Numbered from the stretch's first letter, positions 6,528 through 49,247 are shown. The stretch is 64,000 nucleotides of DNA from an uncultured Ruminococcus sp. (GCA_964621905.1 CAZUNG010000003.1:216366-280365), one strand, 5' to 3'. Translations and numbers: made by a program. The notes: a model not told the origin generated them from the letters alone.

Positions 6528-6602
6528 CGGGGTGTGGCTCAGCTTGGCTAGAGCGCCTGGTTTGGGACCAGGAGGCCGCAGGTTCGAATCCTGTCACCCC
6601 GA
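6528..6602 (+). tRNA. tRNA-Pro(TGG)
   Basis: Cloverleaf; anticodon arm CCTGG-TT TGG GA-CCAGG; T-loop GTTCGAATC. Confidence 0.97.
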
Positions 6603-6641
6603 CTGTTGTATCAACTATGACAACAAGATAGCAGCCAATAT

Positions 6642-6712
6642 GCGGGTGTAGTTCAATGGTAGAACACTAGCCTTCCAAGCTAGATACGTGGGTTCGATTC
6701 CCATCACCCGCT
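6642..6712 (+). tRNA. tRNA-Gly(TCC)
   Basis: Anticodon arm CTAGC-CT TCC AA-GCTAG. Confidence 0.97.
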
Positions 6713-6715
6713 TAC

Positions 6716-6789
<74 letters not shown>

Positions 6790-6793
6790 TTAT

Positions 6794-6868
6794 GGTGGGT
6801 ATAGCGCAGTTGGTTAGCGCGCCAGATTGTGGCTCTGGAGGCCAAGGGTTCGAATCCCTTTATCCACC
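6794..6868 (+). tRNA. tRNA-His(GTG)
   Basis: G-1 present; anticodon arm CCAGA-TT GTG GC-TCTGG. Confidence 0.97.
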
Positions 6869-6876
6869 TTATCTAA

Positions 6877-6948
6877 TGGGCTATCGCCAAGCGGTAAGGC
6901 ACAGGACTTTGACTCCTGCATTCGCTGGTTCAAATCCAGCTAGCCCAG
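6877..6948 (+). tRNA. tRNA-Gln(TTG)
   Basis: Anticodon arm CAGGA-CT TTG AC-TCCTG. Confidence 0.97.
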
Positions 6949-6951
6949 TTT

Positions 6952-6982
6952 GGGAATGCAGGATCTCATATCCTGCATTCCT
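6952..6982 (+). other. 13-bp hairpin in the tRNA-Gln/tRNA-Lys spacer (processing or attenuation element)
   Basis: GGGAATGCAGGAT-CTCAT-ATCCTGCATTCCT, no U-tract. Confidence 0.5.
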
Positions 6983-7003
6983 GTTAGACAATTAAATGAT
7001 TGT

Positions 7004-7076
7004 GGGATATTAGCTCAGTTGGTAGAGCACTTGACTTTTAATCAAGTTGTCCGGGGTTCGAATCCCCGATGTCTCA
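7004..7076 (+). tRNA. tRNA-Lys(TTT)
   Basis: Anticodon arm CTTGA-CT TTT AA-TCAAG. Confidence 0.97.
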
Positions 7077-11666: not shown

Positions 11667-11960
11667 AAATAAAAAACCTGTCCTATCAAATTGATAGGAC
11701 AGGAATATGATCACCTGCGGTGCCACCTAACTTCATTCTGACTGTCAGAATGCGCTTATCACATGTACGTACATACACGTCCCGTTGTAACGATCGGTAT
11801 TCGTCTCCCCTACTTGGATTGCTCCTTTTGGTTTGCCCTCGCAAGCCCATTCGTCATACTCACTTTGCTGCAATTCCACCGCCTGCAGTTCTCTGGAAAA
11901 GTTTTTGTAATGCTTACTACCCTTGCTCATAGGTTTCTGTTATGGTATCAGATGTTTGAT
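11667..11960 (-). ncRNA. T-box riboswitch, Trp specifier
   Basis: Stem I with AGAGA and GGTGGAA boxes, specifier GAA-UGG-GC (11847-11849), T-box AAGTTAGGTGGCACCGCAG (11715-11733), terminator CCTGTCCTATCAA..TTGATAGGACAGG-U-tract. Confidence 0.92.
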
Positions 11961-12049: not shown

Positions 12050-12129
12050 GCGGGCATGGCGGAATTGGCAGACGCGCCAGATTTAGGTTCTGGTGGGAGA
12101 CCGTGCAGGTTCAAGTCCTGTTGCCCGCA
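12050..12129 (+). tRNA. tRNA-Leu(TAG)
   Basis: Anticodon arm CCAGA-TT TAG GT-TCTGG, variable arm, GTTCAAGTC T-loop. Confidence 0.95.
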
Positions 12130-36717: not shown

Positions 36718-37521
36718 ATGCCTGCTGAAAAGGTTAAAAAGAAAAAAAAGAAACGGTCGTATCTCTGGCTGTCGGTCTTGTCGATGGTGCTGTTTTTCTT
36801 TATCTGGTGGCTGTTTACAGAGGGAAGTCTCGGCACGATTAAAGAAAATGTACTGCCCGGACCAATAAAAGTGCTGCGCACACTGATTGATAAATTTTCC
36901 AACAGGAATCCCGACGGCGCTACCATGCAGATGCATCTGTGGGCAAGTCTGAAGATTACGTTGATCGGATATCTTATAGGATGCCTGGTAGGGATACCGC
37001 TGGGGATATTTATGGGCTGGTATGAAAAAGCGGATATCTTTATTAATCCAATTTTTGATTTCATCCGGCCAATTCCGGGGATCGCATGGACACCGTTGTT
37101 CATTTTGCTGTTTGGTATCGGTATGCTTCCGAAAGTGATCGTTATCGCACTGGCAACTTTCGGCCCGGCACTGGTGAACACCTATACGGGAATTAAACAG
37201 ACGAAAGAAGTTCACATCTGGGTAGGACAGACGTTTGGGGCATCAAAATTCGAGATTCTGCGTAAAATTGCGATTCCATCATCGATTCCTTTTGTTTTGA
37301 CGGGAATGCGTGTCGGTCTCGGTGTTGCGTGGTCGACGATTATCGGAGCAGAGATGCTTGCGGCTACTGCAGGTCTTGGCTACCTGATTAATCTGTGCCG
37401 CGGAATTTATCGTCCGGATATTATTATTGCGGCGATGATCTGTGTTGGTCTGATCGGAGCGGCGCTTGGCTATCTGCTGACACTCCTGGAGCGTCATCTG
37501 ATGAAAGGGGGAAGATGGTAA
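36718..37521 (+). CDS. ABC permease, TauC/SsuC type
   Basis: IRPIPGIAWTPL, EAA-loop region, GMRVGLGVAWS.IIGAEML. Confidence 0.9.
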   Translation: MPAEKVKKKKKKRSYLWLSVLSMVLFFFIWWLFTEGSLGTIKENVLPGPIKVLRTLIDKFSNRNPDGATMQMHLWASLKITLIGYLIGCLVGIPLGIFMGWYEKADIFINPIFDFIRPIPGIAWTPLFILLFGIGMLPKVIVIALATFGPALVNTYTGIKQTKEVHIWVGQTFGASKFEILRKIAIPSSIPFVLTGMRVGLGVAWSTIIGAEMLAATAGLGYLINLCRGIYRPDIIIAAMICVGLIGAALGYLLTLLERHLMKGGRW

Positions 37522-38306
37522 TGACTTTGAGAAAAGCAAAATTTTGGCAGAAGCTGGGTGCCGGTGTGATATCATTTGCAGTTTTCATATTAATATGGCA
37601 GCTTGCAGCGATGAATCCCACTTTCAGCCAGGTAATGCCGGGCCCGTTTGATGTTCTGAAAAAGTTTTTTGAATCATTCGTAGAGCCAATCGGAAAAAAT
37701 GTCATGGTTTACCATGTTTTTATTACCTTGTCCAGGTGGGCGGTGGGATTTATTGCGGCGACGGTACTCGGCATTGCACTGGGGCTTGCGATGGGCTGGT
37801 ATCCGAAATTTGAGTCTTTTATGCGGCCCCTTTTTGAACTGGTTCGTCCGATCCCAACGCTTGCATGGATTCCGCTTGTGATTCTGTGGTGCGGTATCGG
37901 TGAGTTTGCAAAATATACACTGGTATTCATCGGTGCTTTTATGAGCATTGTCCAGAATGCTTATCACGGAGCAAAATCTGTCGACCGTTCGATTGTGGAT
38001 GCGGCACAGATGCTTGGATGTAATGACCGCCAGCTGTTTTTTACGATTGTAATCCCGGCCTCTGTACCGGCAATCTCGGCGGGCCTTCAGATTGGCGTCG
38101 CCTCGGCATGGTCGTCTGTTGTAGCGGCAGAACTGGTACGTTCGTCGAGCGGTATCGGATGGATTGTAGTGACGGGACAGCAGAATAATAACATGACGCA
38201 GATTCTGGTGGGAATCCTGGTTATTGCGGTGATCGGGCTGATATTGGCACTTTTGATAAGGAAAGTTGAGGATGTATTATGCAGATGGAACAAACGCGGA
38301 AGATAG
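37521..38306 (+). CDS. Second ABC permease, TauC/SsuC type
   Basis: VRPIPTLAWIPL, DAAQMLG, GLQIGVASAWSSVVAAEL; TAATG coupling with the previous gene (alternative start 37515). Confidence 0.9.
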   Translation: MTLRKAKFWQKLGAGVISFAVFILIWQLAAMNPTFSQVMPGPFDVLKKFFESFVEPIGKNVMVYHVFITLSRWAVGFIAATVLGIALGLAMGWYPKFESFMRPLFELVRPIPTLAWIPLVILWCGIGEFAKYTLVFIGAFMSIVQNAYHGAKSVDRSIVDAAQMLGCNDRQLFFTIVIPASVPAISAGLQIGVASAWSSVVAAELVRSSSGIGWIVVTGQQNNNMTQILVGILVIAVIGLILALLIRKVEDVLCRWNKRGR

Positions 38307-39064
38307 ATGAAAACTTTATCGAACTGAAACATGTAGAGAAAGAATTTGAGAAGGTCAAAGAAGGCGGCGTGTTTCAAGTTGTCGGTGATCTGAATATCAA
38401 TGTCAGGGAAAATGAGTTTCTGGTGCTGTTTGGTCCGGGCCAATGTGGAAAAACAACAATCCTGAATATGATCGCAGGGTTTCAGGAACCGACCGCAGGC
38501 ACACTTAAGATGAAAGGGAAAGAGATCCACGGACCGGACCCCTCCAGAGGGATGGTGTTTCAGAATCTTGCAATCTTTCCATGGCTGACTGTCATGGGAA
38601 ATGTGGAGTACGGTCTGCGGATGAAAGGCATTGATAAAAAGACACGTCGTGAGAGAGCACAGTATTACATAGACCTGGTAGGATTAAAGGGGTTTGAAAA
38701 CCATTATCCGGTCCAGATATCCGGAGGAATGAAACAACGTGTTGGGATTGCGAGGGCATACTGCAATGAACCCGATGTGATCTTAATGGATGAACCATTT
38801 GGCGCTCTTGATGCACAGACACGTTATCTGATGCAGGATGAGATCATCAGGATCTGGGAAGCGGAAAAGCGGACCGTCATCTTTGTCACCAACAATATTG
38901 AAGAAGCGGTCTACGTGGCAGACAGAATTATCGTGATCCGCAACTGTCCGACCAGTGTGAAGGCGGAGTATGAAATCAATCTGCCGAGACCGAGAAGTTA
39001 TATTGATCCTGAATTTTTGAAACTGCGCCGTGAGATTAACAGCGTTGTGGATCATACGCTTTAA
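38279..39064 (+). CDS. ABC ATPase 1 (TauB/SsuB type), degenerate Walker A and H-loop
   Basis: GPGQCGKT, ISGGM signature, LMDEPF, VTNN in place of VTH. Confidence 0.9.
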   Translation: MQMEQTRKIDENFIELKHVEKEFEKVKEGGVFQVVGDLNINVRENEFLVLFGPGQCGKTTILNMIAGFQEPTAGTLKMKGKEIHGPDPSRGMVFQNLAIFPWLTVMGNVEYGLRMKGIDKKTRRERAQYYIDLVGLKGFENHYPVQISGGMKQRVGIARAYCNEPDVILMDEPFGALDAQTRYLMQDEIIRIWEAEKRTVIFVTNNIEEAVYVADRIIVIRNCPTSVKAEYEINLPRPRSYIDPEFLKLRREINSVVDHTL

Positions 39065-39079
39065 AAACGGGAGGGAAAT

Positions 39080-39826
39080 ATGGCTGATAAAAAAATTAAA
39101 ATTCAGGTAGATCATCTGACGAAAAAATTTGGAGATCTTACGGTTTTGGATGACATTTCATTCAATGTAGAAGAAGGAGAATTCCTTTGTATCGTTGGGC
39201 CTACCGGGTGTGGAAAAACAACATTCCTCAACAGTGTGACCAAGTTGTATGATATCACGGCAGGACAGATCCTTGTGAACGGCGAGGAGGTCGATCTGAA
39301 AAAACATAATATTTCCTATATTTTTCAGGAATTCTCAGCAATGCCATGGCTTACAATCGAACAGAATGTAGGGTTCGGACTGGATATCAAGAAAGTTCCA
39401 AAGGCGGAAAAAAAGGAACTGGTGGAAGAAATGCTGGAAATTGTAGGTCTGTCCGATTTCAGAAATTTCTATCCGCAGCAGGTATCCACGAGTATGAATC
39501 AGAGGATTGGGATTGCCCGTGCGTTTGCTACAAAGCCGGAGATCCTGCTGATGGATGAACCGTACGGACAGCTGGATATTGACCTGCGTTTTAAGCTGGA
39601 AGACGAACTGGTAAAGCTGTGGAAGAAAACCGGGACAACGGTATTATTTATCACACATAACGTGGAAGAGGCAGTTTACCTGAGTGAACATATCATGGTT
39701 CTGACAAATAAACCGTGTCATGTGAAAACTGTAATAGAAAATACACTGCCGCGTCCGCGGGATGTCATGTCCCTGGAATTTGTCAAACTGAGAGATCACG
39801 TGACAGAAATGATTAAATGGTGGTGA
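39080..39826 (+). CDS. ABC ATPase 2 (TauB/SsuB type), degenerate signature
   Basis: GPTGCGKT, VSTSM in place of LSGGM, LMDEPY, ITHN. Confidence 0.9.
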   Translation: MADKKIKIQVDHLTKKFGDLTVLDDISFNVEEGEFLCIVGPTGCGKTTFLNSVTKLYDITAGQILVNGEEVDLKKHNISYIFQEFSAMPWLTIEQNVGFGLDIKKVPKAEKKELVEEMLEIVGLSDFRNFYPQQVSTSMNQRIGIARAFATKPEILLMDEPYGQLDIDLRFKLEDELVKLWKKTGTTVLFITHNVEEAVYLSEHIMVLTNKPCHVKTVIENTLPRPRDVMSLEFVKLRDHVTEMIKWW

Positions 39827-39833
39827 GCGTGCA

Positions 39834-40628
39834 ATGGCGTTAGTTTTGTTTGCCGTATGTCTGTTTGCATCGACAGCCGGTGCAGTGGCCGGATTTGGCG
39901 GAGGAGTCATCATTAAACCGGTACTGGATGCATTTGGGATTCTGCCGGTGAGCACTGTCAGCTTTCTGTCGGGCTGTACGGTGCTCGGCATGTCAGCTGC
40001 CTCTCTGATCCGGGGCAGAAATGACGGTGTGAAACTCATGGTGAAGACCAGCACACCGCTTGCGGTTGGGGCAGCGGCAGGGGGGCTGTTGGGAAAAACA
40101 TTGTTTGACCTGGTGCGGGCACGTTTTGCTGATGAAAATATGCTGGGATTGATCCAGACGGCGCTGCTGCTGCTCACGACGGTCGTGGTACTGATCTATG
40201 TCATCAAAAAGGACCGGATGAGCGCCATGCAGGTGGAACATATGGCGGTCTGTCTGCTGATCGGTGTCTTTCTGGGAGGAATCTCATCTTTTCTGGGAAT
40301 TGGCGGAGGACCGATTAACGTTGCCGTGCTGTTTTTTTTCTTTTCTATGGACGCGAAGACAGCCGCCAAAAACTCTATTTATATCATTCTGTTCTCGCAG
40401 GTCTTTAACCTGGCAGCGGCACTGGTAAAAGGCAATGTTCCTGCATTTTCTGTCAGCAGTCTGGTACTGATGACGGCAGGCGGAATTGCCGGTGCCATTC
40501 TGGGTGCCGGGATATCCGGGCGGCTGGATTCGAAAAAAGTGGAAAAACTTTTGTATGCATTGATGATATTGATTATCGGGATCAATTGTTATAATCTGGT
40601 ATCCTTTGCCCTGGTGCTGCGTTTCTGA
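39834..40628 (+). CDS. TauE/SafE-family (sulfite exporter-like) membrane protein
   Basis: Duplicated GFGGGVIIKP / GIGGGPINVA motifs, multiple TM helices. Confidence 0.88.
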   Translation: MALVLFAVCLFASTAGAVAGFGGGVIIKPVLDAFGILPVSTVSFLSGCTVLGMSAASLIRGRNDGVKLMVKTSTPLAVGAAAGGLLGKTLFDLVRARFADENMLGLIQTALLLLTTVVVLIYVIKKDRMSAMQVEHMAVCLLIGVFLGGISSFLGIGGGPINVAVLFFFFSMDAKTAAKNSIYIILFSQVFNLAAALVKGNVPAFSVSSLVLMTAGGIAGAILGAGISGRLDSKKVEKLLYALMILIIGINCYNLVSFALVLRF

Positions 40629-40629
40629 A

Positions 40630-40898
40630 ATATTAAAAAATATGATAGAAGATATGGAGGGGCCAGGCTTACGGACAGTCTTTGACATACCTTTATCGTA
40701 CCGATGGTCCCTCACCACAGAACCGCTATTGAAATGTCCCATAATATTCTGCAGTATACAACCTGTATTCCCTTACAGGATATTGCCTCTGGCATTATTG
40801 AAGAACAGACCAGAGGCATACAGAACATGCAGTGTATACTGGACCGATACCGTCAGCTGAGAAATTCACAGCAGGTTAGAGAAGCGCAGATCCGATGA
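40630..40898 (+). pseudogene. DUF305 (ferritin-like) pseudogene remnant
   Basis: ARLTDSL*HTFIVPMVPHHRTAIEMSHNILQYT...IIEEQ...M: in-frame TGA, upstream frameshift, no start or RBS. Confidence 0.65.
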
Positions 40899-40924
40899 AA
40901 GTTGGATCTGCGTTTTGTTTATCT

Positions 40925-41782
40925 TTAAATGCCGTGGATCTTCAGATTTCGGTATTCGGTAGGCGTTTTGTGAAACTGGGTGTGAAAATAGTTGGTAAAA
41001 TAAGAATCGCTTTGAAAACCTGTTTTGTCAGCAATTTCCCGTATGCTCCAGTCAGTATCGCGAAGCAGTATCTTGGCGGCATTAAGACGGGTCTGGATCA
41101 GGTATTGTTTCGGCGTGACACCGGTCCTGCTTTTGAATTTTTCGGAAAAGTAACTGGCATTCAGGCAGGCCATACCGGCAAGCTCCTGTACGGTCACAGG
41201 CAGATAATAATTTGCCTCGATATAGTGGATAGACTGATCAATCACAGATTCCCTTCCTGCTTCTGATCCGTGCTGCAGGGTGAGAAGGTCGCTCAGGATA
41301 GTATGGATATGACTGGAGATGACTTCTTCGTAGAGCGGTGTCTGCTGAATGAATCCCTCAGCAATCTCCATCAGAGCACGGTGCGTGCGGTTAATGTTGG
41401 GCGGGGTATACGCATGCCGGTATTCATGGATGCGGGAGACAAGCTCTGGTGCGTGGTTGCCCCGGAAACGTACAAATAACAGCTCTGTGTCCTTGCAGGC
41501 TGCATACAGGTGCGCTTTGGAGGTGTCGATGACTCCGATCTCGTTGTCGTGCAGCAGGTATTCTTTTCCGTCGATGATGATCAGCATCTCGCCGCGTACA
41601 ACATACTGGAAGGAAAAGTACCGAAAGTTTGAGAGCGGACGTGATGTAACGTAATGTCTGTTCAGATGATAATGACCGCCCTGTTCCGTGTAAAAGAGAT
41701 TTTTCTTGGCAAATTCAGAGGGAAAATTAATATAGTATTCAGAATCTTTCAGCATGATTCCGGCTTCTCCAAAAGGTTTCAT
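40925..41782 (-). CDS. AraC-family regulator divergent from UroD-like gene 2
   Basis: AAGGAG RBS before ATG 41782; LNASYFSEKFK.RTG.TP, GFQSDSYFTNYF...TPTEYR. Confidence 0.92.
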   Translation of the reverse strand: MKPFGEAGIMLKDSEYYINFPSEFAKKNLFYTEQGGHYHLNRHYVTSRPLSNFRYFSFQYVVRGEMLIIIDGKEYLLHDNEIGVIDTSKAHLYAACKDTELLFVRFRGNHAPELVSRIHEYRHAYTPPNINRTHRALMEIAEGFIQQTPLYEEVISSHIHTILSDLLTLQHGSEAGRESVIDQSIHYIEANYYLPVTVQELAGMACLNASYFSEKFKSRTGVTPKQYLIQTRLNAAKILLRDTDWSIREIADKTGFQSDSYFTNYFHTQFHKTPTEYRNLKIHGI

Positions 41783-41798
41783 AACAGTACTCCTTAAT

Positions 41799-41862
41799 CT
41801 GTATTTTCTTATGTTATATCTGGAATCTGAATAATGAAATAAAGAAAAATATCGCGTAATAT
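41799..41862 (+). promoter_or_regulatory. 41-bp shared motif copy 3 with promoter (UroD-like 2)
   Basis: CTGTATTTTCTTATGTTATATCTGGAATCTGAATAATGAAA-17-TAATAT. Confidence 0.8.
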
Positions 41863-41936
41863 ATAGATATATTATAACATATGAGTTATATGAAGAGTAG
41901 AAAAAATATGAAAAAAATGAAGTTTGGAGGAAGGAA

Positions 41937-43082
41937 ATGTTATCGAGAAAAAATTTCATTGCAGCGATGCGGGGAGAAAAAACAGACAAGATTCCGCTTT
42001 TGATGCGGGAAGGATTTGAGTACTGGTGGGAGCCTAAAGGAAAAGACAGATTTAAGGCGGGATGGATGAACGATCCGGAATACCGAAGGCTGATCCGGGC
42101 TGTCAAAGAGAGCGATGCCTATATTTTGTGTCAGGATCAGTCCTCTTTGTTTAATCGATTCATGATGTCGAGCACAGACAGGATAAAGACGGTGACGAAA
42201 GATGTGGATGAAAATACGAAGGACGTTTTTGGTGAATTACATACGGGCAAGGGAGTTTTGAAATTTCGTGATTCGATCTTTCGGAATCAGTGTACACAGT
42301 GGATTATGGAGGTGCCGGTAACTGAGGTAGAGCAGATGGAGGAACTTTTAGATACTCCGTTTGAAATTAATGATGAAACTGTTGATAAAGCGGTGCAGGA
42401 GGTACAGGATACGGTTGACCGCCTGGATGAGCGTGTGATCTATCAGTTCTTCGTCCCCTCACCGATTGTGACAATCTCGCGCTGTATGACGTTTGAGATG
42501 TTTTTGGAACTGTCACTGACGGAGCGGGAACTGATGCTGGATGCGCTGGAAGAAATTACGGCAAGACAGATACGGATGGTGGATGCCGTCGCTCCAAGGC
42601 TTCCTGACCAGGTTGTGTTCTGGATGGGAGGATCTGAACAGTGTACGCCGCCGATGATGAATCCGGAAGCTTTTGACTTGTTTGTAGAACCGTACGATTC
42701 CAGAGTCGTGAAAAAAATGAAAGAGTACGGCTATGCAGTAGGCTGCCACTGTCATGGAAAAGTTCGCCACGCTGTCGATGTCATGCGGCGGATCGGGTAC
42801 GATGCGACAGAGCCTGTAGAGCCGGCGCCTCAGGGAAACGTGTCGATGAAAGAAGCATTTGAGATTACAGAAGGCCAGCTGACACTGATTGGAAACCTGG
42901 AGTGGGCAGATCTGGAACTGGCATCGGAAGAAGAAATTCGCCATAAGGTCAGAGCCTTGGAAGAAGTGAAAGGGGAACGGCTGATCGTTGCGTCTTCTGC
43001 AGGTCCGATCACTACAGTAACCGGTAAACTGGTCGATAATCATCTGGTGTGGCTGGATGAGTATCAGAAAGTATTTGGATAA
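41937..43082 (+). CDS. Uroporphyrinogen decarboxylase/MtaA-fold protein 2
   Basis: MLSRKNFIAAMRGEKTDKIP start, GGSEQCTPPMMNP, CHCHGKV, EPVEPAPQGN, LIGNLE. Confidence 0.8.
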   Translation: MLSRKNFIAAMRGEKTDKIPLLMREGFEYWWEPKGKDRFKAGWMNDPEYRRLIRAVKESDAYILCQDQSSLFNRFMMSSTDRIKTVTKDVDENTKDVFGELHTGKGVLKFRDSIFRNQCTQWIMEVPVTEVEQMEELLDTPFEINDETVDKAVQEVQDTVDRLDERVIYQFFVPSPIVTISRCMTFEMFLELSLTERELMLDALEEITARQIRMVDAVAPRLPDQVVFWMGGSEQCTPPMMNPEAFDLFVEPYDSRVVKKMKEYGYAVGCHCHGKVRHAVDVMRRIGYDATEPVEPAPQGNVSMKEAFEITEGQLTLIGNLEWADLELASEEEIRHKVRALEEVKGERLIVASSAGPITTVTGKLVDNHLVWLDEYQKVFG

Positions 43083-43103
43083 TCTAATATGGTAAAGAAA
43101 TAT

Positions 43104-43142
43104 GACCTCCGTATGGCGTGTATGAGACAGCCGGTACGGAGG
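43104..43142 (+). terminator. Hairpin separating UroD-like 2 from the NRPS
   Basis: ACCTCCGTA...TACGGAGGT followed by TGTTCTTTT. Confidence 0.5.
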
Positions 43143-43218
43143 TTGTTCTTTTAGGGCTTTCAAAATCCGCATTTTTTAGTATAATAGAAGGTATGTATGG
43201 AGATATGGAGCATGAGAG

Positions 43219-46200
43219 ATGAGAAGTGTCAGAGATACGTTTATTATCAATCACGATAAAAGTAAGGACAAAACAAATAAAACATTTTCTTTGGTATACG
43301 GAATCAAGCATCATGATACAGAAGAAAACTATCAGACATTTGACGTTGGCCAGTGTGCATTTTATGATACGTATGCCGCATCCGGAATGACAGCGCTAAG
43401 CTGCCTGGTGTTTAAATATACCAACCGGGAACATTTTTTGATTACGTATCGTTTTGAAAAAGAACGAATGATGGATATTCGTTTGAGCAAGGAGTATGCA
43501 CCGGCAGACATTTTTCAGGAAATTTCTGACAGATCAGGGGAGGAACCAGACGCGGCGCTTATTGATGCGGCGGATATCCTGCTGGATTTTTCAGATACCT
43601 CTGAATACCCGAAAGATATGAAACACAATATGATCATAAATGTACAGGCTGACGGCGGAAAGGTCAGCTGTTCGGCGCGATATAAGGCGTCTGTATATCA
43701 GGAGGCGTATGCAAAGCAAATTGCAGGGCACTGGTTTTCAATGTTTCATAATCAGGTGTGCGGAAATACACAAAAGCTCAGTGAGCTGCGGCTGGATACA
43801 AAAGAAGAGATCATACAAAAGTGGAATGGGGTGAAATCTTCAGGCAAAAATTACAACTATGATTTCAGCCATTCGATAATTGAAGAGTTCTATCACGGTT
43901 TTCATGAACACATGAATGATGCGGCACTTTGTGATGAGAAGGGGGAACTGACTTATCAGCAGCTTGATTCCATATCGAATCAGATTGCCAATATGCTGCG
44001 GGTGAATGGTGTCATGAAGGGAGATCACGTCGTTGTGATCGGGGAGAGAAGCCGCTTTATGATTCTCTCCATCTTAGCTATACTGAAACTCGGTGCGGCA
44101 TACGTGCCCATTGATATGGAACTGCCATCTATCAGGATCAGATATATCATGCAGGATGTGAGGGCGAAAAACACGATTCTGCTGAATCGCGTACCCGGAG
44201 ATGAGGATTTTGAGAATGTTCTGACACTCGATAATCTGGAACGGTATTCAAAAGAATTTCAGGGTGAATCTGTGGACGGCGGGGATAATGCCTATATCCT
44301 CTACACGTCCGGTACCACCGGCAAACCGAAAGGAGTTATCGTCAGGCACTCCAGCGTGGTGAATCTCAGCAAGTGGTTTGGCGAAACTTACAATTTAAAA
44401 CAGAACAGGCATGTGCTTCATATGACGAACATGTCGTTCGACGTCTCTGTGGAAGAAACGATAACAACACTTCTGAACTTTGCGGTGATATATCTGATTC
44501 CACAGGATATAAAATTAAACAGGCAGAAGTTTGCCGCTTATATCTCGGATAACGGAATATCGATTGCACAGTTTGTTCCGGTCACATTAAAAGAACTGTT
44601 GGGTGATGAACCGAAAATAGAATGCCTGAATGTTGTCATCTGCGGAGGGGATCGGCTGGACGATGACCTGAAAAATGAAATTCTGGCAAAAGGATACCAT
44701 CTGTTTAACCACTACGGCCCGACGGAATGCACCGTAGATGCCGTTGCGTGCCAGTGTGAACCAGACTCTAATGATCTGGGGCGTCCCATAGCAAACACAG
44801 AAGTTTATATCATTGACGAGGACAAACAACTGCAGACATTTGGTGTGGCGGGAGAGCTCTGCATTGCCGGCGCCGGTATGTCCGGGGGGTATTACCGAAA
44901 AAAAGAGATGACAGAGGAGAAGTTTGTCTGGATTCCCTCTCTGCATAAAAAAGTTTACCGGACCGGTGATCTGGCAATTATGCAGCCGAATGGGAAACTG
45001 ATCTTTATCGGCCGCTCAGACCAACAGGTTAAAATCAACGGTCTGCGAATTGAACTGGAGGAGATTGAATTTTACTTTAAGCAGTACCCTGGGATTTTGG
45101 AGGCAGTGGTTACGGTTATTAATAATAATTATGGGGGCAGGGCATTATGTGTGTATTATAAAAGCAATGCTTCTGTGATCTATAAAAAAGTAAAAAACTT
45201 TTTAAGTAAATATCTGCCCCAGTATATGATTCCGAATCATTATATCAGAATCTCAGAATGGCCGGTTACGGTCAATGGAAAAATAGATCAAGAGATGTTG
45301 AGAAAATGGGAGATCAGCGCCCGGAACACAAAGTATATAGCTCCTGAGAGCAAGACTGAAAAAGCAGTGTCGAATATATGGAGAAGGATTCTCGGGCATG
45401 ACCGGATCAGTGTGGAGGATGAATTTATCAATGTCGGAGGAGATTCTCTGAGAGCAGCGATTTTATCCAACCTTCTGATGGAAACCTTTCATGTACAGAT
45501 TTTACCTAACCGCATCTTAACATATACGATCCGAGATACAGCGAATACTATAGACTCAGGGCTGTTAGGAGAGGAACCGGCGGAGGATGATACTCTGCTC
45601 CTGATGAAAAGTGGAAGTGATCCTGAGAAACATATATTTTTGGTGCACGCTGGGAGCGGTGAGGCGGAAGTGTTTGTTGATCTTTGTGATAATCTGTCGG
45701 GAGACTATCATCTATGGGGGATCCGGGCAGACAGGTTAACCGATGATTCACCGAGGAATATCACGCTGGAAGAGATTGCGGAGACATATGTGAAACGGCT
45801 CGAAGCGATACAGCCAAAAGGGTGCTGCCATCTGATCGGATGGTGCATCGGGGGCAGCATTGCGTTTGAGATGGGACTGCAGCTTGAGAAAAAGGGGAGA
45901 AAACTCGGCTTTTTTGCTATGATCAACAGCTTTGCACCGGACAGGGAATTCTGGGGCGAGGTTCCTGCATTTTCTATCCATACGGAAATTCAAGCGGCCA
46001 AAAGACTTCCGCGATTTGAAGCGTTTAAAGTATTACATGGCAAAATAGAAAGTATTTCGGATCTCTGGTGTTCACTGCTGGATTACTACAGTGACATCGG
46101 GTTATCTGCAGAGGAATTGAAGGAATGCGTCTATGACGATATGGACCGGGCGATTCCGTATTATGATTCAGATAATATCACGGTACGGGATATCATCTAT

Positions 46201-46452
46201 TACATGAATGTTCTGCGGACGTTTGACAACGTCAGAGCGTGTTATGTGCCGGAACGAAAGCTGAACGTGCAGGCGTACTTTTTTGCGGCGGCTGATGAGA
46301 CCGCAGCCAATTTTCCGGTATGGGATCAATATTGTGAAAAGCCGATGAGGGTTTATAAAATGAAAGGCAACAACTTTTCGATCTTGCAGTACCCGGATGT
46401 GCTGGATTTTGCAGAACAGTTAAATACAGTGTTATCATGTGAAGGAGTTTAA
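43219..46452 (+). CDS. Stand-alone single-module NRPS-like protein: truncated C - A - T - atypical TE
   Basis: A1-A10 cores (LTYQQL, YTSGTTGKPKG, FDVS, NHYGPTE, YRTGD, GRSDQQVKING.RIEL, NGKID), carrier GGDSL, TE with GWCIGG. Confidence 0.9.
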   Translation: MRSVRDTFIINHDKSKDKTNKTFSLVYGIKHHDTEENYQTFDVGQCAFYDTYAASGMTALSCLVFKYTNREHFLITYRFEKERMMDIRLSKEYAPADIFQEISDRSGEEPDAALIDAADILLDFSDTSEYPKDMKHNMIINVQADGGKVSCSARYKASVYQEAYAKQIAGHWFSMFHNQVCGNTQKLSELRLDTKEEIIQKWNGVKSSGKNYNYDFSHSIIEEFYHGFHEHMNDAALCDEKGELTYQQLDSISNQIANMLRVNGVMKGDHVVVIGERSRFMILSILAILKLGAAYVPIDMELPSIRIRYIMQDVRAKNTILLNRVPGDEDFENVLTLDNLERYSKEFQGESVDGGDNAYILYTSGTTGKPKGVIVRHSSVVNLSKWFGETYNLKQNRHVLHMTNMSFDVSVEETITTLLNFAVIYLIPQDIKLNRQKFAAYISDNGISIAQFVPVTLKELLGDEPKIECLNVVICGGDRLDDDLKNEILAKGYHLFNHYGPTECTVDAVACQCEPDSNDLGRPIANTEVYIIDEDKQLQTFGVAGELCIAGAGMSGGYYRKKEMTEEKFVWIPSLHKKVYRTGDLAIMQPNGKLIFIGRSDQQVKINGLRIELEEIEFYFKQYPGILEAVVTVINNNYGGRALCVYYKSNASVIYKKVKNFLSKYLPQYMIPNHYIRISEWPVTVNGKIDQEMLRKWEISARNTKYIAPESKTEKAVSNIWRRILGHDRISVEDEFINVGGDSLRAAILSNLLMETFHVQILPNRILTYTIRDTANTIDSGLLGEEPAEDDTLLLMKSGSDPEKHIFLVHAGSGEAEVFVDLCDNLSGDYHLWGIRADRLTDDSPRNITLEEIAETYVKRLEAIQPKGCCHLIGWCIGGSIAFEMGLQLEKKGRKLGFFAMINSFAPDREFWGEVPAFSIHTEIQAAKRLPRFEAFKVLHGKIESISDLWCSLLDYYSDIGLSAEELKECVYDDMDRAIPYYDSDNITVRDIIYYMNVLRTFDNVRACYVPERKLNVQAYFFAAADETAANFPVWDQYCEKPMRVYKMKGNNFSILQYPDVLDFAEQLNTVLSCEGV

Positions 46453-46453
46453 T

Positions 46454-47362
46454 ATGAAAAGAAAATATGCAGACCTTTTATTGATATTTATTACTGCCAT
46501 ATGGGGACTGTCTTTTCCGATCATACGGAATTCTTTAAATTATATACCGGAACTCACCTATTTGTTTTATCGTTTTCTGGCGGCGAGTATCGTACTGGCG
46601 GTGATTTTTCACCGCAAAATCAGAAGCATAACGAGAACGGTATTGTGGAAAGGCGCATTAATGGGTGTCTCCATATCCGGAGCACTCGGGTTTACGGTTA
46701 TTGCACTTCGCTATACCACGGCTGCAAATGTGGCTTTTATCACGGGAATGAATATTGTGATTGTTCCGTTGCTTTCCGGCTTAATGCTAAAGAAAAAAGT
46801 TGACTGGGTCAAAAAGGGAAGTGTTCTCATTGCCATGATTGGGCTTTTTCTGATCTCGGGCGGTGTGGAGCTGAAGTTTAACCGGGGAGATTTTCTGGCC
46901 TTTCTGTGTGCATTATGCATTTCACTTCAAATCATTTTGACAGATCTTTTTGCGGCTGATGAAGATCCTGTGATCCTGGGATGTCTGCAAGTCAATGTGG
47001 CGGCCGTCATTTACTTTTTTTTAAGCCTGATCAGTGGAATCGGGTTTGCCTTTGAAGTGAAAGGCATTGTTGTAACCACGATCCTCGTAACAGGGATTGC
47101 AGGCACGGCATTGGCATTTGTGGGGCAGACTTTTGTTCAAAAGTTCACGACGCCGTCACACGTGGCCATCATTTTTGTTTTAGAGCCTGTCTTTGGAGCA
47201 CTGTTTGCACTGTGGATTCCAAGGCTGGACGGGACAACGGAGACAATTTCTGTTATCAAAGGAGCGGGGTGTGTGCTGTTGGTTATATCCATGCTTTTTA
47301 CCGAGATCTTTGGTGCGAAAGCTGACGCCAGGAGCAAACTGCACGATGAAATTGCAAGTTGA
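46454..47362 (+). CDS. EamA/DMT-family transporter
   Basis: IWGLSF start, duplicated EamA halves, LEPVFGALFA; starts 1 nt after the NRPS stop. Confidence 0.9.
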   Translation: MKRKYADLLLIFITAIWGLSFPIIRNSLNYIPELTYLFYRFLAASIVLAVIFHRKIRSITRTVLWKGALMGVSISGALGFTVIALRYTTAANVAFITGMNIVIVPLLSGLMLKKKVDWVKKGSVLIAMIGLFLISGGVELKFNRGDFLAFLCALCISLQIILTDLFAADEDPVILGCLQVNVAAVIYFFLSLISGIGFAFEVKGIVVTTILVTGIAGTALAFVGQTFVQKFTTPSHVAIIFVLEPVFGALFALWIPRLDGTTETISVIKGAGCVLLVISMLFTEIFGAKADARSKLHDEIAS

Positions 47363-47387
47363 CAAAATGAATCTGCTACTGTATAAT
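47359..47387 (+). promoter_or_regulatory. sigmaA promoter of amt-glnK
   Basis: TTGACA-17-TATAAT. Confidence 0.9.
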
Positions 47388-47649: not shown

Positions 47650-48891
47650 ATGAATACCGGGGACACAGGCTTTATGTTAATTTGTACTGCATTTGTATTT
47701 CTTATGACACCGGCACTGGCATTTTTTTATGGAGGTCTTGTGAGACGGAAAAATGTCGTGAATACCATGATGGTTTGCGTGGCAATTATGGGATTATCTG
47801 TGGTAATGTGGACGTTATTCGGATATTCACTTTCGTTTGGAGGAAATCATGCAGGGATAATCGGGGACTTCCGCTGGCTTGGACTAAACGGTGTGGGAAT
47901 GGATGCAGGACCGTATGCAGAGACGATTCCTCATCTGGTCTACTGTGCATTTCAGATGATGTTCGCAATGATCACACCGGCATTGATTACCGGGGCAGTT
48001 GTGGGAAGAATGAGATTTAAAGCATTGTTTTTCTTTATCGCACTCTGGTCGGTGGCAGTCTATTATCCGCTGGCGCATATGGTGTGGGGAGAAGGCGGTT
48101 TGCTGGCAGCGATTGGTTCTGTGGATTTCGCAGGCGGAGATGTGGTTCATATCAGTTCCGGCATTACGGCACTGACCTTGGCCATTATTTTGGGAAGACG
48201 GCGTGGGTATGAGGTGATGACATACCGCGTACATAATATTCCTTTCGTTGTGCTTGGAGCGACGCTTCTCTGGTTTGGATGGTTCGGATTTAATGCGGGC
48301 AGTGCGCTTGCAGCAGATGGTCTGGCAGCACATGCATTTATGACCTCTGCAATTGCAGCCGCATCGGCGCTGTTATCATGGATGCTGATTGATGTGATCC
48401 GGAACGGGAAACCGACGCTTGTCGGCGCATCAACAGGACTGGTAGTGGGACTGGTGGCAATCACGCCGGGTGCGGGCTTCGTGCCGGTCTGGTCATCCTT
48501 CATCATCGGAGCGCTGGTCAGCCCGATCTGCTACTTTGGAGTGGCACTGGTTAAGAGAAAATTGAAAATAGATGATGCATTGGATGCGTTTGGATGCCAT
48601 GGAATCGGCGGGATTTGGGGTGGAATTGCCACCGGAATCTTTGCGAAGAGATCCATCAATGGTGTGGCTCGCTGGGACGGTCTTATCTATGGCGATTATC
48701 ATCTGTTCACGGCACAGATCATAGGGATCGCTGTTACGATTGGTGTTGCGATTGTTGGAACTCTCATTTGTGTGGCAATCGTTAAAGTGTTTACACCGCT
48801 GCGGGTAGAGGTAAAAGACGAACAGATTGGTTTGGACAATTCCCAGCATGGAGAAAACGCATATCCATGTTTCAACGGACTGGATCAGTAG
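47650..48891 (+). CDS. amt: Ammonium transporter
   Basis: FFYGGLVRRKN, FQMMFAMITPALITG, DFAGG.VVH, WFGWFGFNAGS, DDALDAFGCHG. Confidence 0.96.
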   Translation: MNTGDTGFMLICTAFVFLMTPALAFFYGGLVRRKNVVNTMMVCVAIMGLSVVMWTLFGYSLSFGGNHAGIIGDFRWLGLNGVGMDAGPYAETIPHLVYCAFQMMFAMITPALITGAVVGRMRFKALFFFIALWSVAVYYPLAHMVWGEGGLLAAIGSVDFAGGDVVHISSGITALTLAIILGRRRGYEVMTYRVHNIPFVVLGATLLWFGWFGFNAGSALAADGLAAHAFMTSAIAAASALLSWMLIDVIRNGKPTLVGASTGLVVGLVAITPGAGFVPVWSSFIIGALVSPICYFGVALVKRKLKIDDALDAFGCHGIGGIWGGIATGIFAKRSINGVARWDGLIYGDYHLFTAQIIGIAVTIGVAIVGTLICVAIVKVFTPLRVEVKDEQIGLDNSQHGENAYPCFNGLDQ

Positions 48892-48902
48892 GAGGAAGAG
48901 TC

Positions 48903-49247
48903 ATGATGATCAAGGTAGAAGCAATTGTGAGAGAAGAGAAATTTGAGGATATTAAACAGGCGCTGCAGGATATTGAAGTGAACGGAATGACAGTATCCCA
49001 AGTGATGGGTTGCGGTGTGCAAAGAGGGTACAAGGAGATTGTCAGAGGAATGGAAGTAGATATTCAGATGCGTCCGAAGATCAAGTTTGAGATTGTAGTG
49101 TCTTCTGAAGAGTGGGAGGCCAAGACGGTCGAAGCAATCCAGAAAGCAGCGTTTACCGGCGAGATGGGGGACGGAAAAATTTTCAGTTATGAAATCCGTT
49201 CCGCAATGAAAATCCGTACGAAAGAGACCGGGTATGATGCAATTTAA
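48903..49247 (+). CDS. glnK: PII nitrogen regulator (GlnB/GlnK)
   Basis: KVEAIVR, GCGVQRG, PKIKFEIV, TGEMGDGKIF; directly after amt. Confidence 0.92.
   Translation: MMIKVEAIVREEKFEDIKQALQDIEVNGMTVSQVMGCGVQRGYKEIVRGMEVDIQMRPKIKFEIVVSSEEWEAKTVEAIQKAAFTGEMGDGKIFSYEIRSAMKIRTKETGYDAI

Follow-up and report, generated by a model that had tools for sequence, protein, structure and literature searches.

Can the thioesterase of a nonribosomal peptide synthetase (NRPS) work without its catalytic histidine, or is a copy that lacks it a broken gene? NRPS thioesterases (TEs) are treated as Ser/Cys-His-Asp hydrolase-fold enzymes, and the question is raised by a locus in a 64,000-nucleotide stretch of DNA from an uncultured Ruminococcus sp. 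(GCA_964621905.1 CAZUNG010000003.1:216366-280365; the whole stretch is here called the window), in which a stand-alone NRPS gene is followed directly by a gene for an EamA-type transporter. The TE of this NRPS has Cys, Asn and Asn at the three triad positions, and so do the TEs of all 17 members of its family, down to 30% identity. Since Cys-Asn-Asn is present in every family relative, it represents a real enzyme variant and not a broken gene. The gene, the TE domain and the three codons are located as follows.

43219-46452, plus strand: NRPS gene, 1077 aa, encoding an orphan condensation-domain C-lobe, an adenylation (A) domain, a carrier (T) domain and a TE (open reading frame call and Pfam).
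45586-46440, plus strand: thioesterase domain, residues 790-1074, α/β-hydrolase fold.
45844-45846, plus strand: TGC codon of Cys876, nucleophile position, in GWCIGG.
45925-45927, plus strand: AAC codon of Asn903, acid position I, in MINS, on the loop after β6.
46372-46374, plus strand: AAC codon of Asn1052, catalytic His position, in GNNF (GNNFSIL).

The triad positions were mapped by comparing the protein (phmmer) and a family profile (hmmsearch) with the PDB sequences of solved TEs. Cys876 aligns with the Ser that serves as nucleophile in the TEs of EntF and skyllamycin, Asn903 with the EntF Asp (LLDT), and Asn1052 with the AB3403 His (GDH). In the AlphaFold2 (AF2) model, Cys876 lies between strand 870-875 and helix 877-891, at the nucleophile elbow after β5, while Asn903 is just past strand 896-902 and Asn1052 follows strand 1044-1048, on the loop after β8; the predicted topology around the three residues is that of a canonical α/β-hydrolase. 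An earlier sequence-only reading of the window had proposed a Cys TE lacking the usual His and had pointed to the motifs GWCIGG, MINS, GNNFSIL and, in the carrier, GGDSL. All four motifs were found in the translation, the alignment to solved TEs places Asn1052 on the His position, Asn occupies it throughout the family, and the AF2 secondary structure puts the three residues at canonical triad elements.

The family members (30-65% identical) comprise full-length proteins (P0002-P0009, 45-65% identity), two relatives at 39% (from an Epulopiscium-labelled metagenome-assembled genome (MAG) and from Anaerosacchariphilus polymeriproducens), three short A-T-TE forms, and the divergent P0055. The next relative outside the family, P0017, reads GWSIGG, LIDS and GNHFS at the same places. 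When 1.84 billion representative proteins were searched exhaustively with a profile and the matches realigned, 177 closely related TE stretches emerged, which included 94 with Ser/Asp/His, 37 with Cys/Asn/His, 7 with Cys/Asp/His and 19 with Cys/Asn/Asn, the last being the window NRPS family and two unrelated outliers. A TE-profile search of a 90% cluster database added only fragments. The replacement of the usual Asp by Asn, which had also been singled out, is thus present but not unusual, given the 37 Cys/Asn/His stretches among these closest relatives. The Ser-to-Cys and Asp-to-Asn changes occur together. The Cys/Asn/His TEs show no consistent acid at position II (the loop after β7), and 24 of the 37 stretches are at the C-terminus of larger NRPS proteins (among P0123-P0263).

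Variation at the strain level was checked in contigs from six metagenome runs belonging to four studies (gut, pig gut, bioreactor and one unlabelled metagenome study). No variant was found at the TGC, AAC and AAC triad codons wherever the contigs cover them; the bioreactor contig stops before Asn1052. Across the whole cassette there were 24 strain single-nucleotide polymorphisms (SNPs), 13 synonymous and 11 non-synonymous, the latter mostly conservative, with no indels. Within the family the mean pairwise identity of the TE (47.5%) is close to that of the A domain (48.6%), with lower values for the T domain (36%) and the C-lobe (24%).

The triad is not the only part of the TE that is particular to the family. 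The family-fixed columns were set against 144 full-length TE domains from elsewhere in the clade, and besides Asn1052 (His in 142/144) fourteen family-specific fixed residues were recognized, several of which are neighbours of triad residues or belong to the lid or the loop that follows β7. Position 819 is Phe in the family and Tyr in 139 of the 144 other domains; position 880 is Ser, where 104/144 have Thr; and position 1027 is Glu, where 79/144 have Ser. Residues 905-913, directly after Asn903, read F-A-P-D-x-E-F-W-G in the family, and lid residues 973-976 read D-D-M-D; neither motif is conserved in the other TE domains. Two of these features are discussed further below:

46135-46146, plus strand: codons of D973-D974-M975-D976, family-specific acidic lid motif YDDMDR.
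46297-46299, plus strand: codon of Glu1027, invariant in the family and Ser in most relatives, past strand β7 at the putative position II.

Glu1027 is three residues past the β7 strand in the AF2 secondary structure, which would place it at position II, where the Cys TEs SulM and ObiF1 have their catalytic Asp (PMC11298585). The triad change is one part of a coordinated remodelling of the TE, and its distinctive step is the loss of His with the linked family-specific substitutions, not the Asn at the first acid position.

The rest of the protein consists of the following parts.

43219-43245, plus strand: N-terminal nonapeptide MRSV(K/R)DTFI, family-specific, disordered in the AF2 model (predicted local distance difference test score, pLDDT, <50).
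43276-43863, plus strand: C-terminal lobe remnant of a condensation (C) domain, residues ~20-215, without N-lobe and without HHxxxDG.
43903-45318, plus strand: adenylation domain, residues 229-700, core motifs intact, specificity code DVEQIGHVDK.
45364-45525, plus strand: carrier (T) domain, GGDSL, codon of Ser743 at 45445-45447.

Pfam matched AMP-binding at residues 229-559, AMP-binding_C at 615-688, PP-binding at 716-769 and Thioesterase at 805-1064, whereas the Pfam Condensation model gave no match anywhere in the 1077-aa protein. The A domain is well supported (AMP-binding E 2e-69; NCBIfam amino-acid-adenylation model TIGR01733, 355 bits against a cut-off of 317), and K688, the equivalent of Lys517, is invariant in the family alignment, as is Ser743 of the carrier (PP-binding, 30.2 bits, cut-off 20.8). 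For the TE, PF00975 scored 69 bits and PDB TE matches reached E 4e-21, in agreement with the AF2 secondary structure and the fold matches. The AF2 model of the whole protein has a mean pLDDT of 82.4, and its best structural matches are the termination modules AB3403, EntF, SrfA-C and ObiF1. Pfam, NCBIfam and the AF2 model agree on the domains, and the A, T and TE domains are intact and conserved. The stand-alone module of the sequence-only reading, with an intact A domain, a GGDSL carrier and a TE, is upheld. In fold and in mode of working the NRPS resembles a termination module, but it lacks two of the features that define one, the catalytic motif of the C domain and the TE triad.

The N-terminal region had been described as about 200 aa of degenerate condensation-like sequence without HHxxxDG. 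The motif is indeed missing, but what the region (~215 aa) contains is an orphan C-lobe, not a whole C domain in decay. With a profile of residues 1-235, the match was confined to the C-terminal lobe found in condensation domains (TycC6, 2jgp, residues 324-519, E 2e-11), so that the N-lobe with HHxxxDG is absent and not degenerate; in the relatives, matches to the Pfam Condensation model begin only at about position 186-190. No other part of the protein evolves as fast as this remnant, which is deleted in the three short forms; these retain A-T-TE and EamA. The remnant is without catalytic motif and dispensable. The nonapeptide MRSV(K/R)DTFI, on the other hand, is present in all family members, including the short forms without the C-lobe, with codons that vary synonymously, and is absent from the canonical relatives.

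The closest solved relative is AB3403 (ABBFA_003403 of Acinetobacter baumannii, PDB 4zxh), which was the best TE-profile match (E 4e-21) and the best whole-protein fold match. Like the window NRPS, it is a single stand-alone termination module (C-A-T-TE) with a Cys nucleophile (GWCFGG). However, AB3403 retains the Asp (MIDT), the His (GDH) and a complete C domain, and its operon has further biosynthetic genes and no EamA partner. It has been called uncharacterised (PMC11298585).

The second gene of the locus, and the signals at its junction with the first, are:

46441-46447, plus strand: GAAGGAG ribosome-binding site of the EamA gene, within the 3' end of the NRPS gene.
46454-47362, plus strand: EamA/DMT-family transporter, 302 aa, two EamA repeats (PF00892, 95 bits).

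The NRPS stop codon (TAA, 46450-46452) and the EamA ATG at 46454 are separated by 1 nt, as had been noted from the sequence, and the view that the two genes are translationally coupled stands. In all 11 family loci that were examined, the orthologous EamA follows the NRPS directly and the flanks are unrelated. The gene tables of six family members place it immediately 3', with gaps of 1-91 nt, and tblastn found the same NRPS-EamA order in all five GTDB species genomes with the family. The exception is P0055, whose larger cluster contains an ATP-grasp ligase, MFS, Dabb, a 2-hydroxyacid dehydrogenase and a non-orthologous EamA. The identity of EamA to the window copy falls with that of the NRPS (82, 69, 67, 52 and 48-49%), and the transporter co-evolves with the synthetase. 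An orthologous EamA that is always downstream amid unrelated flanks indicates an autonomous cassette, which upholds the two-gene interpretation proposed from the sequence.

The cassette is 4.1 kb long and consists of one protein and one putative exporter. No other NRPS domain was found in the 64-kb window, no partner free-standing T or C protein either there or in the seven family loci for which gene tables were drawn up, and no tailoring or epimerisation domain in the module or cassette (Pfam; family gene tables). An Sfp-type phosphopantetheinyl transferase gene is immediately upstream of the NRPS in one family locus; a tblastn search with this enzyme gave no match in the window, as expected from the sequence-only reading. 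The family is rare, with its few carriers among anaerobes of gut and bioreactor: it was present in 5 of 185,579 species genomes (Anaerosporobacter mobilis, a Clostridiales MAG, Clostridia bacterium UC5.1-1D2, a Lacrimispora MAG and Anaerosacchariphilus polymeriproducens), all of them Clostridia and the named ones Lachnospiraceae, and in fewer than 20 clusters of the protein collections. The literature searched contained no characterised cluster matching the cassette, no paper on Cys TEs without His or on a clostridial single-module NRPS with EamA, and no match to the specificity code DVEQIG(H/N)VDK.

All family members share this code, whereas related stand-alone modules vary in theirs; the nearest to it is that of P0017 (DPEDIGHVDK). 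Glu239 and Asp331 (GrsA numbering) were assigned by hand from motif positions, and they may resemble Lys/Orn/Arg-type codes, a comparison of low confidence. The codes of other stand-alone C-lobe-A-T-TE proteins resemble Lys, Gln, Glu, Asp/Asn, Val and Tyr codes. The substrate of the window NRPS probably has a basic or polar side chain.

What, then, could a TE of this kind do? The set of activation, loading and offloading domains is complete and contains no condensation catalyst, so that what reaches the TE must be an aminoacyl thioester whose α-amine is free. Our preferred interpretation, a tentative one to which we give somewhat less than even credence, is that the locus is an autonomous operon in which a single-module NRPS and a dedicated EamA/DMT exporter would make and export one small amino-acid-derived molecule, released by an amine. 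The A domain would adenylate one amino acid and load it on the phosphopantetheine of Ser743. The aminoacyl group, with its α-amine free, would pass to Cys876 by thiol-thioester exchange, a step that would need little base catalysis, and with no His to activate water the aminoacyl-S-Cys876 would be long-lived and unhydrolysed. An amine nucleophile in the acidic pocket would then resolve the aminoacyl-enzyme, and EamA would export the product. The amine could be the side chain of the substrate itself, which would yield a lactam; the α-amine of another aminoacyl unit on the T domain, which after EntF-like reloading of the carrier would yield a dipeptide or diketopiperazine; or a free cellular amine, which would yield an amide. 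None of the three is firmly preferred. Both the acidic lid and the acidic residues of the A-domain pocket would fit a cationic substrate, and we infer aminolysis, or amide transfer to an amine, as the mode of release.

EntF, the iterative TE of enterobactin synthesis, is among the closest TE sequence relatives and holds an acyl group while the carrier is reloaded; a long-lived acyl-enzyme with reloading of the carrier would permit self-condensation of aminoacyl units. In contrast to the window NRPS, EntF has a Ser/Asp/His triad, forms an ester intermediate, and is supplied with dihydroxybenzoyl-serine by a functional C domain.

In its strongest form the proposal would define a new catalytic class, a His-independent Cys transacylase with a Cys876/Glu1027/Asn network and an Asp-rich lid, derived from the terminal TE of a larger assembly line and restricted to aminolytic release of a free-amine aminoacyl thioester. 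Its product, exported by Lachnospiraceae of gut and digester, would be a lactam, dipeptide or aminoacyl-amine metabolite not described before. This reading is possible but doubtful. If true, a conserved and selected His-less Cys family would mean that offloading can run without a general base, and would point to the residues by which hydrolysis is suppressed, a help in the engineering of non-hydrolytic release. It would also add a small molecule from anaerobic gut and bioreactor Lachnospiraceae. As a minimal system of one protein and one putative exporter, the cassette lends itself unusually well to heterologous expression. An NRPS enzymologist would not expect such an active site, although the family is rare and dispensable.

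Several observations count against an autonomous, amine-releasing cassette. The NRPS copies look broken in 2 of the 5 species genomes, and the cassette is therefore dispensable. In A. mobilis DSM 15930 (L001 7852-10855) the NRPS is split by a 66-aa deletion and a frameshift, with loss of the A4 motif, and in UC5.1-1D2 (L003 4500-7847) it is split by several frameshifts at A-runs and truncated at the 3' end, defects that may be assembly errors; EamA is intact in both. The closeness of Glu1027 and the DDMD lid to Cys876 is presumed from the predicted topology, and the basic or polar substrate is a guess based on comparison with other codes. No RNA run with the gene was found, and three pig-gut metatranscriptomes of the same study had no contig of it, which is uninformative on expression. 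Finally, a trans-acting partner may be encoded elsewhere in the genome, beyond the 64-kb window.

Such a partner is central to the best-surviving alternative, that the TE is a catalytically silent TE0 and the protein a stand-alone loading module like PacP, whose aminoacyl-S-T would be used by a trans-acting enzyme encoded elsewhere, with the Cys acting at most as a relay. PacP, from pacidamycin synthesis, is likewise a stand-alone A-T-TE0 protein with a TE that lacks the canonical triad, and it donates the aminoacyl group to a further carrier (PMC8748450). Docking elements could be provided by the orphan C-lobe and the N-terminal nonapeptide, and the nearest canonical relative, P0017, does sit in a multi-protein NRPS. 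However, PacP acts in a cluster whose NRPS parts are free-standing, and its TE is considered inactive, whereas the window TE is strongly conserved with its Cys kept, and the window and family loci hold no other NRPS gene, EamA being the only constant neighbour. A dead domain would be expected to drift like the C-lobe, but this TE is as conserved as the A domain and has 15 family-specific fixed residues, counting Asn1052. We consider a silent TE unlikely, though with a real chance of being correct.

Quite unlikely is a Cys TE of the ObiF1/SulM type that releases a strained or small ring (a β-lactone, a β-lactam, another lactone or a thiolactone), with Glu1027 at position II replacing the relocated Asp. 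ObiF1 (obafluorin, a β-lactone) and SulM (sulfazecin, a monobactam) share the Cys nucleophile with the window NRPS and have their acid on the loop where Glu1027 appears to sit; ObiF1 is among the top structural matches, and a small product would be expected. Both are known for non-hydrolytic release of small products, and a base has been argued to be unnecessary for the SulM nucleophile (PMC11298585). Nevertheless, both retain the catalytic His (SulM Cys2818/Asp2926/His2956), which in the window NRPS is Asn1052, and both work in multi-domain lines with functional C domains. The Gln-Cys-Asn motif around the SulM-type nucleophile (PMC11298585) is replaced by W-C-I, the sequence neighbours of the TE are AB3403 and EntF and not ObiF1 or SulM, and the A-domain code is unlike those of Ser, Thr and diaminopropionate.

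Likewise quite unlikely, in our view, is a hydrolase with an alternative base (Glu1027 or a lid Asp), in a cassette that would free and export a possibly modified amino acid. The fixed Glu on the loop after β7 and the acidic lid could provide such a base, and a Glu-activated Cys is known in other folds, as in the nitrilase superfamily, but ATP activation merely to hydrolyse would be futile, and no tailoring or epimerisation domain is available to modify the amino acid. A damaged allele or sequencing error, suggested earlier because AAC is one base from CAC, can be dismissed given Asn in 17/17 members, unvaried triad codons in the metagenome contigs, an intact open reading frame, and SNPs that are mostly synonymous or conservative.

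For the preferred autonomous cassette, the canonical relatives show a route from the terminal module of a large assembly line to a self-contained mini-pathway. P0017, with Ser/Asp/His, is the last module of a multi-protein NRPS and has no EamA. Its locus (L015 1386-11459, a Joint Genome Institute (JGI) metagenome contig) encodes a C-A-T-C protein, both C domains of which carry HHIISDG, followed by a B12-binding radical-SAM gene and then the C-lobe-A-T-TE protein. P0017 and P0217 are examples of a sister clade that has the same stand-alone C-lobe-A-T-TE architecture as the family but differs in its Ser/Asp/His triad, in Tyr819 and in the absence of the DDMD lid; elsewhere in the clade, stand-alone C-lobe-A-T-TE proteins carry either a canonical or a Cys/Asp/His triad. 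In a related protein, P0114, radical-SAM and B12 domains are fused within the NRPS; such an arrangement is unusual in itself.

The signals in front of the NRPS gene were the following.

43102-43152, plus strand: hairpin and U-run, intrinsic terminator of the upstream URO-D/MtaA-like gene, which would cut the cassette off from upstream transcription.
43180-43185, plus strand: TATAAT -10 box, with a weak -35 (3/6).
43207-43210, plus strand: GGAG ribosome-binding site of the NRPS gene, 8 nt before the ATG.

The hairpin (43102-43146, followed by the U-run) folds at -26.2 kcal/mol with z = -3.7, and a comparable hairpin was seen by eye in the syntenic locus L006. The pair had been credited with its own -10 behind a hairpin, and both elements are in place; a full promoter is not, since the consensus scan called no complete sigma-70 site at 43180-43185 because of the weak -35. 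No regulatory RNA (T-box or riboswitch) for the cassette reached the Rfam gathering thresholds in the window or in seven loci, and two long upstream gaps gave none at E<=1.

The genes around the cassette gave no consistent theme among the family loci, and the neighbourhood was rejected as a clue to the substrate. In the window, the upstream block is:

37395-43082: permease and ATPase of an ABC transporter, TauE sulfite-exporter family protein, AraC regulator (minus strand) and URO-D/MtaA-like methyltransferase.

L006, which is syntenic to the window, also has an NMT1-type binding protein upstream and a second URO-D-like gene downstream. Downstream of the cassette in the window are amt, glnB (P-II), an AraC regulator and a PucR regulator. 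Sulfur or Cys/Met genes are near the cassette in three contexts (the window with the syntenic L006, L012 and L013), while the remaining loci have 5-oxoproline/D-Glu, purine or NAD genes beside it. In the locus of P0004 (L009 5553-5654), a purine riboswitch precedes a xanthine permease/phosphoribosyltransferase pair and belongs to these neighbours, not to the NRPS.

Just past EamA, at 47359-47387, there is a perfect sigma-70 consensus (TTGACA-17-TATAAT) before amt (47650-48891) and glnB/P-II (48867-49247), a pair that is missing from the otherwise syntenic L006. Elsewhere in the window, and unrelated to the cassette, are a T-box leader (96.7 bits; 11692-11939, minus strand), a cluster of six tRNA genes (6528-7076, plus strand) and one more tRNA gene (12050-12129, plus strand).

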